64,000 nt of DNA from Octopus vulgaris (lineage: Eukaryota), in contig OX597829.1 in assembly GCA_951406725.2 (NCBI GenBank), positions 57,846,001-57,910,000 on the forward strand, in the 5' to 3' direction. Every line of letters starts with the position of its first letter. The first letter of the stretch is position 1. A program made the translations under genes and the position numbers. A model generated the notes under the pieces. That model was not told where the DNA came from. It made no database searches and was given only the letters and a program-made list of their open reading frames with translations. This document shows, piece by piece, positions 10,036 through 39,849 of the stretch.

Positions 10036-10487
10036 TATCATCATTATTATTACTGTTAGGCATAGTCGTAAGTAACCTAGATTTTTTAAACGCCATGGTA
10101 AAACCTAACACAGTCAGTATATACTTAGAAATATACCAAAATGACCTCGGAAACGAAAGATATATCTTACAAAGTCCCCTAAGAATTTGCCTTTTCTAAA
10201 TACTATAGATGACATCTGAAACTTGCTTCCCTTATGTTTAAACGGTAATCTGATTCGATTCACGTTCAGTGGAATCTTGAATGAAAAGAAAAACGAGGGT
10301 GTATGTGTGAAATGCTAATATTTCTGGAATTCGTAGATGCTTCAACTATCAAAGAGGGGTTTCCCCGGCTGTGTGGATTATAAATAAACAGAAATATTTG
10401 TTTTATAAACAATTGCATCGTTGAAGGTGTTTATAAGCCATTTAAGAAACACACAAAAACCATTAGATTCACTTCAACATTTAAATT

Positions 10488-10535
10488 TGTCAGTGAACAG
10501 GTCGCGGTATGAAAGCGACGAAAATATTTTCACAA
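10488..10535 (+). ncRNA. Degenerate type I hammerhead-like motif with G3-C8 core, in the loop of a fold-back repeat (10395-10620)
   Basis: TTGTCA-GTGAACA-gGTCGC..GCGAC-GAAA-ATAT-TT-TCACAA. One stem I mismatch and one extra base at stem II. Confidence 0.45.
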
Positions 10536-10729
10536 ATTAAATTTAAATGTTGAAGTGAATCTAACGGTTTTTGTGTGTTTCTTAAATGGCTTATAAACAC
10601 CTTCCACGCTGCAATTGTTTTCGTTCCAGCACACGATCTCAGATCAGGTCACTTGCTATGCAAGTACATCTCCATATTTATTTTATATTTTAGCACAAAG
10701 TCTGGAATTTGTGGATTGAGTGGCGGGGT

Positions 10730-10895
10730 GGGCAGTCGACTGCATTAACCCAATGTTTCACTGATACTTAATTTATCGATCCCCAAAGGATGAAAGGTAA
10801 AGTCGCCCTCGGTGGAATTTGAACTCAGAACGTCAAGACAAACGAAATATCGCTCAGCATATCGCCCAGCTTGCTAACGAGTCTGCCAGCTCGAC
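10730..10895 (-). mobile_element. Third SINE family fragment
   Basis: Minus-strand GAGTTCAAATTCC B box and GAGCTGGCAGA..GTTAGC A-box region. Related fragments at 28820-28940. Confidence 0.6.
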
Positions 10896-11277
10896 GCGAT
10901 GTATGTATATATGTATGTATATGTACGTATGTGTGTGTATATAAATATATGTACATATGTATATATATATATATATATATATATATATATATATATATAT
11001 GTATATGTATATGTATATATATATATATATATATATATATGTATATATATGTATATATATAAATATATATATATATATATATATATATATATATATGTAT
11101 GTATATAGATATATGTATGAATGAATGTATGTATGTATATATGTATAAGCACGTATGTGCGTATGTATATAAATATATGTACATATGTATATATATGTAT
11201 GTATATATGTACATATGTATATATATATGTATATATATATATATATATATATGTATATATATATATATATATATATA

Positions 11278-11582
11278 TAATAGAAATATTAAAATTACTA
11301 AGTCTCTCTAAAAGAGAACAGCGGCAGCGTTCCCGGAAAATAATAGTTATCGCCATACTAATATGGCATTCTTATAAAAATAAGAATAAAGCTGTCCGCT
11401 TATTAGCTCCATGAGGCCATCGCCTTAAGTTAGCTATTTGACCTCCCTTGTTCGAAGGTTATATGGATACAGTTTGTGTATCAAATAGCTAACTTAAGGC
11501 GATGGCCTCATGGATCTAATAAGCGGACAGCTTTATTCTTATTTTTATAAGAATGCCATATTAGTATGGCGATAACTATTAT
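11278..11582. mobile_element. Fold-back fragment of the 362-bp hammerhead family (see 18053-18790), between (TA)n tracts
   Basis: 11342-11441 is inverted at 11480-11582, and the sequence is shared with 18053-18790. Confidence 0.85.
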
Positions 11583-11692
11583 ATATATATATATATATAT
11601 ATATATATATATATATATATATATATATATATATATATTTAGTGTAGGAAGAAATGGAGCTGAACGAAGACTTAACAAAATTCCTTTTTATT

Positions 11693-11778
11693 ATTTTCTA
11701 CATATGTTTCAAAGGCTGCAAAGTCCTTAATTCGGATTGAATAAGGAGACCATTTTGCAGCCTTCTCTTCAGGAAAAT
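11693..11778 (-). ncRNA. Type I hammerhead ribozyme
   Basis: AUUUUC-CUGAAGA-GAAGGCUGCAAA..UUUGCAGCCUUU-GAAA-CAUAUG-UA-GAAAAU. Confidence 0.85.
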
Positions 11779-36180: not shown

Positions 36181-36561
36181 CTTATATATATATATATATA
36201 TATATATATGGATTGGTTTATATATATATATATATATATATATATATATATATATATATATATATATATATATATATACACATATATATATATATCAAAA
36301 GGCTTTGGTCGGCCCGAAGCTATAGTAGAAGATACTTGTTCAAGGTGCCACGCAGTGGGACTGAACTCGGAACCATGTGGTTGCTAAGCAAGCTACTTAC
36401 CACACAGCCACTCTTGCATCTATATATATATATATTTATTTAGAAGATAAGGGCAGAAGAAATATTCTAATGCCAAATATGTCGAAACAAAAAATTGTCG
36501 ATAACCATTATAATTTATGCGTCTCGAAACAAACCGATAGAAATCTCTAAAAAATTCGTTA

Positions 36562-36622
36562 TTACCGTATTGGTCCAATTTCGGGGTTAATTCATAAGAA
36601 ATTTTCCCCTCTTCAGCGGCAA
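36562..36622 (-). ncRNA. Type I hammerhead ribozyme
   Basis: UUGCCG-CUGAAGA-GGGG..CCCC-GAAA-UUGG a CCAA-UA-CGGUAA. Confidence 0.85.
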
Positions 36623-36779
36623 ATACCCGAGATATAAATCAAATACTTACTCGTACCCACGGAAAAAGCAAACACCAAGTCCCGAGCAGACTTAAGTACC
36701 CCAAATATATCCAAATAGAAAAATCTTCGGCGCACCTCAAGACACGTGTGATTCGAACTAGAAACTTTCACAGAGTGAT

Positions 36780-38411
36780 GGATTTTTCCTTTATTACCCA
36801 TAAAGGGCTACATAGAATGGACAGTACAAACATTGGGGACACAAAGCATCACAATTACATAAATATGGGTAAATGAATTACGAAAATGGTAAATGAAAGT
36901 GATGCTAACGGCCCCATTCCGCTAGCATCACTTACCTGTCCTTTGTGACTTGTCATCCGATATCATACCCAATGTAAAACCCTTCGCTCTCTATTTTTCT
37001 CCTGAATCTCTCTTCCAACTCCTTCACTATCTCATCCTTTACTTTCACCTTACTCACTTCCAAGTCTTCATTTTCACATCTCTCCATAAGCTCATCCATC
37101 TGTTCCTTTGGAACCTCTGCATATCTACAACCTTCCCTCTCACACCATTGATAGTCACTTATCATCTCTTTTGTGTCCTCTCTCCCCGCGATGCATAAAA
37201 TGTTGGGCTTGGGTTCTTGTTTGGTGTCTTGTCTGTGTGCATCTTTTTTCTGTTTTCTTGTTGGTGGGGAGTGGGTGGGTTCACTGTCTACAGGGGAAGG
37301 ATGGGACTCAGAGGGTGCGGGTGGTGTTGGGGTGGATTGGGGTTCAGTACTGTTTAACTTTCTCCTTCTTCTCTTTCTTTTTTTTCTTTCTTCTTCCCAT
37401 TCGTTCTGGGCCTCCTCTTCTGTTGTTTCCTTCTCCACTGGATTCCGTTCTTCTTCTTTATTCTCAAACTCTCTTTGGGGTTCCATAACAATTTCCTTTG
37501 GTGGGGGAGAGCAGTTAGCTCTTATGTGGCCTCTCAGGCCACACTTGTAACAGTGCGGGGCTCTGCCCTCCACCCACACTCTCATGATGATATTTCCCAT
37601 TCTTATGTTTTCAGTTAGCCTTTCCAGCGTTTCAGCCTCCGCTTGCACATTCATATCTAGAGTAGCACCCCTCCAGCCTTCATATTTTATGGTAGCATGG
37701 AGGATGTCCACCTCTTCTTCACATCCTTTGATTACCGCTGCCGCTATCCATTCGCCTTCTATATGTGGGGGTATTCCCTCCACCCTGATTCGAGTGGTTT
37801 TCCTGTTCAAATATGAGGGTAGAAGGAATACCTTCTCCGTTTCCACTGCTTTGGCTGCCATTTTTCTTGCAACGTTTTCACTCCTAAATTGAACCATCAC
37901 CGTGCCAAATTCCATGCCTCTTGTCAAATAAATAATTTCTTCCTCTGTTCTTTTCAACGCTTCTTCAATGAATTCCATGCTGACTATTTCTATTCTTTTG
38001 TTTCCGTTTGCATATACTCTGTACTTGATTGTCCTGCGATCGAACTACTCACCACGCTTTATTGGTGGTGACAATTCGGCTTCGCCGCCTTCCTTTTCTA
38101 TAAATTCCTGAAAGCCTGGCAACTTGACCAGGTCTACCTCTCTTTCTCCCGACTTCTTCGTCACTCCTGCATACGTATTACCAAGCCTTTCATCCATCTT
38201 CTTCACTGCCTTTTCTAGTTCCTCTTCGGAAGTCGACAACTCCGATAAACTTTCAAACAATCCTTGTCCGACCATCGCCTCCCGTTAGGGAGGAGCAGTC
38301 CATTTTCTCCTTGTCTGTCTCAACGCAGACAGACAACAGCCAAAGACCAAAAACCGTATAACAAAACGTTCAACAATAATTCAACAATAAATAATCAGCA
38401 ACTTACAGTAA
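36780..38411 (-). mobile_element. ORF1-only Tx1-type element E3 (gag-like zinc knuckle protein)
   Basis: 341-aa ORF 36953-37978 with CYKCGLRGHIRANC and FLLPSYLNRKTTRIRV (like E1/E2), upstream piece 38045-38275, 3' AATAAA, 38-bp flanking duplication. Confidence 0.85.
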
Positions 38412-39101
38412 ACATGTGTGGTTCGAACAAGAAACTTTCACAGAGTGATAGAATCCGGAAGTGAACACTAATCTATTTATAATTAATATAGGATAAAAAA
38501 TTTTTCGGGGAAAAAAATGTTATCAATGGCCAGCATATCAAAAAATGCCTTTAAAGGTAAAATTTATACATAATTTACAAGATAAGGGCAGAAAATTTCT
38601 TATGAATTAACCCCGAAATTGAACCAATACGGTAATAGCGAATTTTTTAGAGATTTCTATCGGTTTGTTTCGAGACACATAAATTATAATGGTTATCGAC
38701 AATTTTTTGTTTCGGCATATTTGGCATTAGAATATTTCTTCTGCCCTTATCTTGTAAATATATATATATATATATATATATGTATATGTATATGTATATA
38801 TATATATATATATATATATGTATATATATATATATATATATATATATATATATATATATATATATATAATAATAAAATATTAGGGAATAAATCCAAACTT
38901 ACAGGGAAAAATCAGATTTAGGATTAAATCCAATTTTATAGTATAAATATATTATATTATATTATATTAAATTAGAGATAAAACCACTATTAGGCAAATC
39001 AAACAATGAAAAACATAAGCCAATGCATAAAATTAATTTAATTTATATTATTTTAAATATATATCAAAAGTATTAAAAGTTTAATAAAAGATAAAGAGTA
39101 A

Positions 39102-39196
39102 AACACTACGATCGTTTCATGGCTGTACAATTCGAATAACAATAATTTAAATTCAATTAATAATTCGAGTTATGGTTACAGTCAATCTTCAGGTTA
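39102..39196 (-). ncRNA. Degenerate hammerhead (relative of the 19224 family)
   Basis: CUGAAGA-uUGACUGUA..UACAGCCAu-GAAA-CGAUCG-UA, with weak stem I. Confidence 0.55.
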
Positions 39197-39849
39197 ATTG
39201 AAATATCTAAAAAATAATCAGAAATATTTAAATAATATTTTTAAGATATAAATAATATAATAATTTTACTTATAATAAACTCTATTATCAAACTAGAAAC
39301 ATAAAACTTAACAATTATGATTATATCAAAATCGACTATAATGTTAAATATTAATTTTAATTTATAAGGTAGGAAACCCACCAATAATCTAATATCGGTA
39401 TTAATCTATATCTAATTACATAAATATTTAAAAATGACTATTATATATAAATTATCAATGAAAATATATAAATGTATATATATATTATAATTAAGATCTA
39501 AAATAATCTCTATAAATAAATATATATGCACATATAATAATAATAAAAACCTAATAAATTAATTTTTCATATTTAAAGATGAAATAGCTAATTTCAAAAA
39601 TACAAACAAACAAACTTAAACGAACTTACGGAGATCTTATGTAAAATACTTATAGAAATAATCAATTCGTAGTAATATAGTATCAAATAAATACTATAAA
39701 TACTATAAATATAATTATCAATGGGAATAACTAGCGAATATCAATTTTAAAAGACAATAACTAAGTTATGCTATTAAATTAGACATGGCCTGGTCCAATC
39801 TTTAGTCGAAACATATCTAAGTTTATCAAAGTTTATCAAATTTAATATA

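Follow-up and report, generated by a model that had tools for sequence, protein, structure and literature searches.

Hammerhead-ribozyme elements in a 64-kb window of Octopus vulgaris DNA: tandem units without protein frames and Penelope-like element ends that share an insertion footprint

Introduction

The stretch of DNA analysed here, hereafter the window, comprises 64,000 nt of Octopus vulgaris (assembly GCA_951406725.2, contig OX597829.1, forward-strand positions 57,846,001 to 57,910,000, renumbered from 1), and it contains a group of elements that carry type I hammerhead motifs, predicted to be self-cutting RNAs. These elements are probably a mixture of two kinds, namely tandem units without an open reading frame (ORF; families B, C and E/E2) and end-pieces of Penelope-like elements (PLEs; families A, D, D2 and H, and probably F), both likely inserted by Penelope-type enzymes that combine a reverse transcriptase (RT) with a GIY-YIG endonuclease (EN). 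The evidence that carries this view is an insertion footprint with two fixed ends that is common to the ORF-free units and to family H, an intact PLE family. Published work is cited below for those sections of each paper that bear on the comparison at hand.

Hammerhead motifs of the window

A sequence-only reading of the window had listed eleven type I hammerheads, one of them (10488-10535, +) as merely probable, and had assigned them to five to six families of non-autonomous retrozymes. Descriptor scans and family alignments give the type I layout at 11/11 of these sites, with some corrections to the cores, and add a twelfth site, a U3:A8 hammerhead at the end of the family H PLE (36057-36088, +). 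The site listed as probable is real and has a G3:C8 core. A strict descriptor scan finds four of the sites, whereas 200 dinucleotide-shuffled versions of the window, cleared of long simple repeats, gave 0.01 on average and never more than 1. A relaxed scan together with family alignments yields the other seven and the extra one. The Rfam profile search that had been suggested as a check did not recover them, with 0 matches in the window at the gathering score and, at E<=10, no hammerhead family but only simple-repeat noise among 150 of the 206 rows. We count six families (A, B, C, D/D2, E/E2 and F), in agreement with the earlier estimate, and repeat units of 360-590 bp were likewise correctly read (B 587, C 362, E/E2 465-480 nt). 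The absence of similarity outside the core holds among the six families but not within D/D2 (86% over 184 nt) or E/E2 (73% across the unit).

Stem III is self-complementary in 8/8 families, with a predicted self-duplex of -7 to -15 kcal/mol in 7/8, and as a monomer it forms no stable hairpin in any of them except for a weak one in E2, which is the layout of dimer-type hammerheads (PMC4209133). The family C core, UUGAAAA, is the consensus across 31 loci and has the U3:A8 pair that is known as a natural variant (PMC3088659; PMC4209133). The family F core, GUGAACA, is found in 16/19 motifs at 15 loci, and its G3:C8 pair is in print as an engineered rescue (PMC11167929). A natural core of this type escapes standard descriptors, and no report of one turned up in our literature search, for which few candidate papers were examined. 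The hammerheads of D/D2 do not have the usual G10.1-C11.1 pair and their stems are atypical, stem I of the D2 site (39102-39196, -) being just 2-3 bp. At least eight further hammerhead families were encountered by chance in the flanks of other loci (including L002, L040, L082, L103, L121, L124 and L155).

Table 1. Hammerhead-bearing and associated elements of the window (positions in nt from the first letter of the window).
Feature	Position	Strand	Remarks
Family F, back-to-back stub of 225-nt element	10408..10676		short-end arm 10408-10488(-), long-end arm 10486-10676(+)
Family F type I hammerhead	10486..10537	+	G3:C8 core pair; one stem I mismatch here
Family C fragment without hammerhead	11277..11582		two arms, ends at long (238) and short (175) sites, in (TA)n
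Family A, back-to-back 5'-truncated 3' ends of Hydra-like PLE	11632..12520		short arm 11632-11990(-), long arm 12023-12520(+)
Family A hammerhead	11699..11772	-	core intact; stem II 12 bp
Family A hammerhead	12241..12314	+	GAAA to AAAA, a catalytic-core change; predicted to be inactive
Family B insertion, 587-nt unit	15617..16858		(TA)n both sides
Family B arms	15617-16057(-), 16058-16858(+)		to short site (197) and to long site (~300-307)
Family B hammerhead	15814..15893	-	core intact
Family B hammerhead	16472..16551	+	core intact
Family C insertion, 362-nt unit	18052..18788		arms 18052-18535(-), short end, and 18534-18788(+), long end
Family C minimal hammerhead	18230..18259	-	U3:A8 core pair
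Family D, two back-to-back spliced copies of Hydra-type PLE terminal repeat	18940..19387		arms: long 18940-19198(-), short 19199-19387(+)
Family D exon-exon junctions	19183-19197(-), 19208-19222(+)
Family D hammerhead cores	19169-19175(-), 19230-19236(+)
Family E2 retrozyme	19711..20219	+	~1.06 units of 476-480-nt repeat, 91% to family unit
Family E2 hammerhead	19791-19839	+
Family H, 5'-truncated Neptune-type PLE	34087..36183	+	inverted 5' piece 34087-34274
Family H RT and GIY-YIG frames	34289-34972, 34942-35424		two overlapping pieces, then 3' region and hammerhead 36057-36088
Family E insertion, 465-nt unit	36438..38768		arms 36438-38593(-), split by the 1.6-kb ORF1-only element, and 38591-38768(+)
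Family E hammerhead	36568-36616	-
ORF1-only (zinc-knuckle) non-LTR-type element	36790..38411	-	inserted into E, 20-bp target duplication
Family D2, intron-retaining 5'-truncated 3' end of Hydra-clade PLE	38877..39856	-	splice acceptor within 39200-39214
Family D2 hammerhead core	39186-39192	-	weak stem I
Family I fragment without hammerhead	39855..40088		end of 563-nt tandem hammerhead unit

Tandem units without a protein frame

The families were followed through the 2.8-Gb assembly (227 contigs), with the best 40 of 1,000-4,000 candidates scored in each genome search. The first-look candidates (2200 for B, 1069 for C, 2519 for E and 4157 for E2) are not copy numbers. Repeat views of one locus (e.g., L006/L007, L016, L045-47, L049, L077, L303, L308 and L314) were left out of the counts, and three E loci with an inserted ORF1-only element were kept apart from them. 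Head-to-tail arrays of family B, whose units repeat every 586-587 nt, occur on many chromosomes, family C has a period of 362 nt and many segments that are 100% identical to the window copy, and the periods of E and E2 are 448-465 and 462-480 nt. The B and C arrays are perfect, with a constant period and up to 5-6 units per arm, and family E seldom exceeds 1.5 units per arm. Each unit of B, C and E/E2 contains a type I hammerhead, has a GC content of 0.34-0.41 and is predicted to pair stably with itself as a circle (z values of -3.0 to -7.0, the 30 mononucleotide shuffles used for comparison being a lenient control).

The longest frame in the family B unit is 55 amino acids, and four PLE protein pieces gave no tblastn match to the B, C, E and E2 units (best expect value 0.13). 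Among 37 B, 31 C, 32 E and 9 E2 loci, taken from thousands of candidates, no common ORF-bearing sequence lies upstream of the units, and none of the endonuclease matches in the loci retrieved continues in the sense direction into a B, C or E unit. Judged by these features, B, C and E/E2 fit the ORF-free tandem non-LTR (long terminal repeat) retrozymes of animals, a known kind of element.

Family I, which has a 563-nt unit and its own hammerhead, resembles B only at B positions 100-300 (~73%), a 200-nt 3' module. Since this segment contains both of the fixed ends described below, it may be the enzyme-recognition module of B and I, and it marks a wider group of families. Further repeats related to it (L121, L291 and L293/L294) are 77-90% identical to B, and contig depth in sequencing run X16 peaks over the same module. 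Family C, which is young (0.9% difference between loci), also occurs in assembled contigs of 20 sequencing runs from 11 studies. Contigs of four runs, all under one organism code, were compared with the C unit and contigs of four runs with B; a unit-to-unit joint is present in run contigs, as it is in genomic tandem copies. Between 0.84 and 1.0 of the sampled family C words are present in runs under seven organism codes.

Penelope-like element ends

The situation is different for families A and D2. At 7/15 family A loci the sequence leads upstream into a long GIY-YIG frame that ends ~385 nt before the query, three more loci reach into the end of such a frame, and a longer flanking stretch brings in the RT thumb as well, in a frame of 548 amino acids. 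At 6/20 family D2 loci a GIY-YIG frame follows after ~2.6 kb of non-coding sequence. In A, D2 and H alike, an RT with a C-terminal GIY-YIG domain lies upstream of the hammerhead-bearing terminal repeat (pLTR), and there is an inverted 5'-truncated copy and a tail at one end. On this sequence evidence A and D/D2 are PLE terminal repeats whose ORFs lie elsewhere in the genome, and none of A, D and D2 shows tandem units that are ORF-free and separate from a PLE ORF. Hence the earlier statement that the families have no ORF is true inside the window and, for A and D2, false genome-wide. As independent retrozymes these two families fail, each being the 3' pLTR of an autonomous Penelope, and the earlier interpretation is partly supported, in that the proposal of non-autonomous units mobilised by Penelope survives for B, C and E/E2, which are ORF-free, show the PLE insertion footprint and at no locus seen join a Penelope ORF.

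The D2 translation has DKT, a CxCX5C linker and CxxC plus CxH around E/N, with no CCHH; DKT, CxCX5C, CxxC and CxH are published marks of the Hydra clade (PMC8557442), in which D2 can be placed on these motifs and A by homology. The family A protein has CxxC and CxH and no CxCX5C, and its EN is 33-38% identical to that of D2. The 753-amino-acid frame of family H, with DKG, a CX4CxxC linker and CCHH in the EN, points to the Neptune clade. These clade labels are motif-based, since a protein database search with the A endonuclease region returned nothing at E<=0.001. The corresponding search with the H protein gave H matches only, and the Pfam GIY-YIG matches (E 1.8e-4 for H, 6.5e-3 for A) are both under the curated cut-off. 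Intact 753-amino-acid frames are present in family H, copies of which repeat in tandem every 4617 nt at two loci, and more than 100 of 150 scored H endonuclease matches share one score, many of them in such open frames; the family looks very recently active. Family H is also a candidate helper for family C, with no sequence in common seen between them. The linker between RT and endonuclease in the family A protein is asparagine-rich (L142:4214-5857 and other A loci), as in Adineta PLEs (PMC3846280).

An insertion footprint with two fixed ends

Counted from the predicted cleavage site, the outer ends of the insertions lie at two sites (~197/~300 in B, 175/238 in C and 138/228 in E), such that the long site is 63-103 nt beyond the short one; the distance is ~47 nt in H. 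Among 71 two-armed B, C and E insertions both ends could be classified in 62, and all 62 combine one short with one long arm; in the other nine, one end is at neither site. The E query, which has no bias towards the long end, gives 13/13 short plus long. The same combination is found in 7/7 classifiable two-armed loci of family H (by eye), in A (4/4), in D/D' (18/21) and in F (7/8). The flanks are (TA)-rich at 63/64 B ends, 56/57 C ends and 36/50 E ends, and a check for target-site duplications places the outer ends of B, C and E/E2 in (TA)n. The earlier reading described nearly all families as bounded by (TA)n; family F is not, its window copy lying in AT-rich DNA and flanked by a 13-bp near-duplication with one mismatch.

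A one-sided tail is already known for PLEs (PMC8557442; PMC3846280), and work in vitro on an anole PLE traces it to a pair of adjacent internal RT start sites and shows cleavage and extension of both DNA strands (PMC11167929). The presence of the two-ended footprint in an intact PLE family therefore argues for PLE enzymes as the mover of B, C and E. Inversion junctions lie near short palindromes (13/66 B 5' ends are at positions 90-110; also C positions 39-49), which suggests that the two arms are joined through microhomology guidance.

Spliced copies of a PLE terminal repeat

Most of the top matches to family D end ~30 nt upstream of the query start, and the comparison of D with D2 led us to predict a short first exon and an intron, which were then tested by pattern search. 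The pattern that joins D2 exon 1 to the hammerhead exon has 31 matches, with 0 for the control. Of these, 26 join exactly where a 0.9-kb intron has its GT donor and its pyrimidine-rich AG acceptor, and the remaining five are shorter by 4 nt and non-GT. For family D the counts are 27 exact spliced junctions, with another 22 in a sister variant, and 96 unspliced acceptors, although the ratio of spliced to unspliced copies is rough because the search patterns differ in length. At 4/25 unspliced D loci the sequence extends to exon 1, with GTAAGT or GTACGT as the donor and introns of 1117-1316 nt. In D/D2, a spliceosomal-type intron thus follows just after the putative pLTR start and ends beside the hammerhead, and by sequence D is a spliced copy of a pLTR that is sister to D2. 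The 13/13 exact-splice D2 loci and the 19 D' matches that were inspected stop no more than ~30 nt upstream of the exon 1 motif, and by analogy with Penelope of D. virilis (PMC2377424) we infer that this fixed 5' limit is the start of pLTR transcription.

The loss of the GT-AG intron is exact in both arms of the window copy of D, and paired junctions on opposite strands occur at further loci. An antisense template has been proposed for head-to-head arms and intron retention in PLEs, in an account that does not exclude unspliced sense RNA (PMC3846280). If the intron loss is due to splicing, sense RNA is the sole possible source of spliced head-to-head arms, and the spliced state of both arms of D argues against the antisense-template explanation of head-to-head PLE insertions. 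The D copies therefore bear on the question of template polarity in PLE biology, as raised in PMC3846280, and favour sense RNA. No report of integrated spliced PLE copies turned up in our literature search, which did not cover supplements or the 2003 intron paper.

Family F has a fixed 5' limit in 18/18 pattern matches and no head-to-tail array in 32 loci. A parent, either unspliced or linked to an ORF, was not found, and none of four pattern matches has a shared intron. F is probably a PLE end-piece and may be a stub of the same kind as D.

Proposed mechanism and alternatives

The predicted cleavage site is crossed one or more times, and up to six times, by 55/66 B, 52/58 C and 39/51 E insertion arms, so that the template must have been either a circle or an uncleaved multimer. 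Sequence differences are smaller within than between insertions (0.65 vs 2.80% in B, 0.42 vs 0.89% in C and 3.3 vs 4.6% in E). When sites were scored at which a derived base is common to both arms or differs by unit position, the derived base was present in both arms and every unit at 92/99 such sites in B and 20/25 in C, and this uniformity speaks for a main route in which one unit is copied again and again. We propose that Penelope-type RT/GIY-YIG enzymes cut TA-rich DNA and that copying of sense RNA would begin at two fixed internal positions, a different one for each of the cut strands. A dimer of the PLE protein could prime both strands, one per site, and the two complementary DNAs would then join at their 5' ends, with the start of pLTR transcription setting the fixed 5' limit. 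Tandem units would arise when the enzyme copies one unit several times over; the simplest template for this would be a one-unit circle made by dimeric hammerhead cleavage and ligation, and some events might use linear multimers.

Several observations weigh against this mechanism or parts of it. The self-duplex of family F stem III is merely -0.2 kcal/mol, PLE-type minimal hammerheads cleave poorly in vitro (PMC4209133), 8/9 Xenopus retrozyme dimers showed no cleavage (10.64898/2026.07.22.740005), and insertion in vitro did not require cleavage (PMC11167929). The 5' ends of B are not clustered at the cleavage site (1/66, with 2.2 expected), and the excess in C (11/58) is confounded by the query's own junction, so 5' ends were set aside as marks of cleavage in vivo. 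Derived bases are non-uniform at 7/99 sites in B (4 loci) and 5/25 in C (5 loci), and several of these vary by unit position in both arms, as from a linear multimer, which favours some use of linear multimers, or later conversion, besides single-unit copying. As to the footprint, the B and C queries include the long end, so that only the second arm is free of selection; the E insertion of the window, which is outside the set of 62, is short/short, as are three D' loci, and one F locus is long/long. Finally, no helper PLE for B, C, E/E2, I or F was found among the best 40 candidates per search, and an ORF-linked copy could be missed at this depth.

That limited number of scored candidates is also what leaves room for the idea that all families are truncated 3' terminal repeats of autonomous PLEs, with the tandem units as partial-tandem pLTRs and no independent retrozymes. 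This is the case for A, D2 and H, and by homology for D, but as an explanation of all families it is unlikely. B and C form arrays of constant period where each unit is directly preceded by another, and a search of the kind that revealed the A frames gave no shared upstream ORF in 37 B, 31 C or 32 E loci. The sole PLE beside a family I copy (L299) was rejected as a helper, being a chance neighbour that is set apart by (TA)12 and has its own end. Even less probable, in our judgement very much so, is that the arrays are satellites that began as single pLTR copies and grew by unequal crossing-over, with the inverted arms as repair fold-backs. Such a route has been discussed for vertebrate retrozymes (10.64898/2026.07.22.740005), and local expansion would also predict homogeneity within a locus, but the arrays are short and scattered over many chromosomes, and their outer ends are fixed element sites against (TA)n. 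A DNA fold-back would yield equal ends, whereas the two arms differ in all 62 classifiable B, C and E insertions, as they do in family H.

A more serious competitor, though one that we still consider doubtful, holds that PLE enzymes move linear read-through transcripts of genomic arrays, with the hammerhead as a passenger and no circle involved. Variants by unit position that are common to both arms (e.g., L037, L193, L162 and L169), the failure of 5' ends to cluster cleanly at the cleavage site and the use of uncleaved RNA as the main substrate in vitro (PMC11167929) all agree with it. However, derived bases are mostly in every unit of an insertion (197/310 B sites), which would need a recurring single-unit bottleneck or strong homogenisation, and the hammerhead core hardly varies, if at all, within B, C and E, young as these families are. 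With regard to the copies of D/D2 that have no intron, DNA deletion or template slippage by the RT would render them uninformative on template polarity. The five shorter D2 junctions have a short repeated word at both ends and no GT donor, and one of them retains a long upstream region, and in D the intron and exon 2 both start with GT, a small microhomology. This has little probability as a general explanation, given the precision of the other 26 D2 junctions, the single junction position in three diverged subfamilies with different intron lengths and the uniform end of the spliced copies close to the exon 1 motif. Returning to PLE-driven insertion of sense RNA, we tentatively advance a broader picture, which is possible rather than probable, in which one genome contains the whole route from Penelope to retrozyme. 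It would include short stubs retro-copied from spliced sense RNAs that start in the pLTR (D, probably F), circles made by hammerheads (B, C, E and I), a PLE dimer that copies from both cut strands with different fixed start sites, and a hammerhead that is active with three 3:8 pairs, among them the natural G3:C8.

Comparison with known systems

The elements described here are mostly a known kind in a new host. Metazoan non-LTR retrozymes (PMC7229834; 10.64898/2026.07.22.740005) are, like B, C, E/E2 and I, ORF-free tandem units of low GC content that are a few hundred bases long and have a single type I hammerhead each, and dependence on PLEs has been proposed for them. Unlike those, the arrays here are short and dispersed, with two arms whose outer ends are two fixed element sites within (TA)n, and the U3:A8 core of family C is a further difference from the published examples. 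Cleavage and circles have been demonstrated in the published systems and are predicted here. In these same sources, which as far as cited here do not sample cephalopods, the link to PLEs comes from co-occurrence and pLTR homology rather than from insertion ends. ORF-free units with the footprint of an intact PLE accordingly offer direct genomic support for the mover of animal retrozymes. A paper on the giant squid genome counts 235 hammerhead loci without analysis in the part relevant here (PMC6962438), and our literature search, which did not cover supplements, turned up no report of cephalopod retrozymes.

Endonuclease-containing (EN+) PLEs of the Hydra and Neptune clades (PMC8557442; PMC4209133) share with the PLE families of the window the RT with C-terminal GIY-YIG, the hammerhead in the terminal repeat, 5' truncation, an inverted 5' copy, a one-sided tail, (TA)n targets and an intron near the pLTR start. 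The tails are longer here (47-150 nt vs 30-40), as is the pLTR intron (0.9-1.3 kb vs 75 bp in D. virilis and 398 bp in Chlamys-3), and many integrated copies here are exactly spliced, whereas intron retention is a published hallmark of PLEs. The Anolis Poseidon PLE PAc (PMC11167929) likewise has its tail defined by a pair of adjacent internal RT start sites, with AT-rich cleavage, extension of both strands and a predicted dimer. Its C3G/G8C double mutant partly rescues cleavage, and in the octopus there is a natural G3:C8 family. With PAc in vitro no difference in start site between strands was seen, whereas in the genome here each arm of nearly every two-armed insertion has a site of its own. 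Non-autonomous elements of Chlamys such as MRC1 (PMC8557442) are also PLE derivatives with multicopy head-to-tail insertions; as described there, however, they mostly have no canonical hammerhead and at the 3' end resemble known autonomous families, a kind of partner that was not found for B, C or E.

What is added to this background is the PLE footprint held in common with family H as an internal positive control, the spliced head-to-head copies and the presence of three 3:8 core-pair variants within 30 kb. The two fixed ends name RNA sites for work in vitro, and the young families (C, and H with its many intact frames) provide a ready test system for helper and parasite.

Other elements in and around the window

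The ORF1-only element that splits the family E arm has a frame of ~460 amino acids with a weak zinc-knuckle match, and no RT is seen. A gag-like protein encoded by E was considered and rejected, as the 1.6-kb piece is separate, with target duplications of its own, and lies within E, at the identical site, in 3/20 loci. Elsewhere (L081-L100) its target duplications are ~13-24 bp, few target repeats are reused, and tandem stacking occurs. At L083 the opposite E arm is without the element, which is itself 87% identical compared with 94-95% for the E flanks, and this suggests repeated site-specific insertion. By eye, we presume a resemblance to Tx1-type ORF1 and HAL1-type elements.

Family G is a small back-to-back repeat fragment between TA tracts (12660-12880) with two 3' end points and 413 candidates, and neither a hammerhead nor an ORF was seen in the loci examined. 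A 1-kb piece between TA tracts (16936-17989) starts with TG and ends with CA and by eye is similar to a solo LTR. Translations inspected by eye indicate mariner-like transposase frames and broken L1/Tx1-like long interspersed elements (14140-15400, 20854-27654, 44086-45174, 45650-50750 and 61515-62444), and a dispersed repeat similar to short interspersed elements has many copies in the window.

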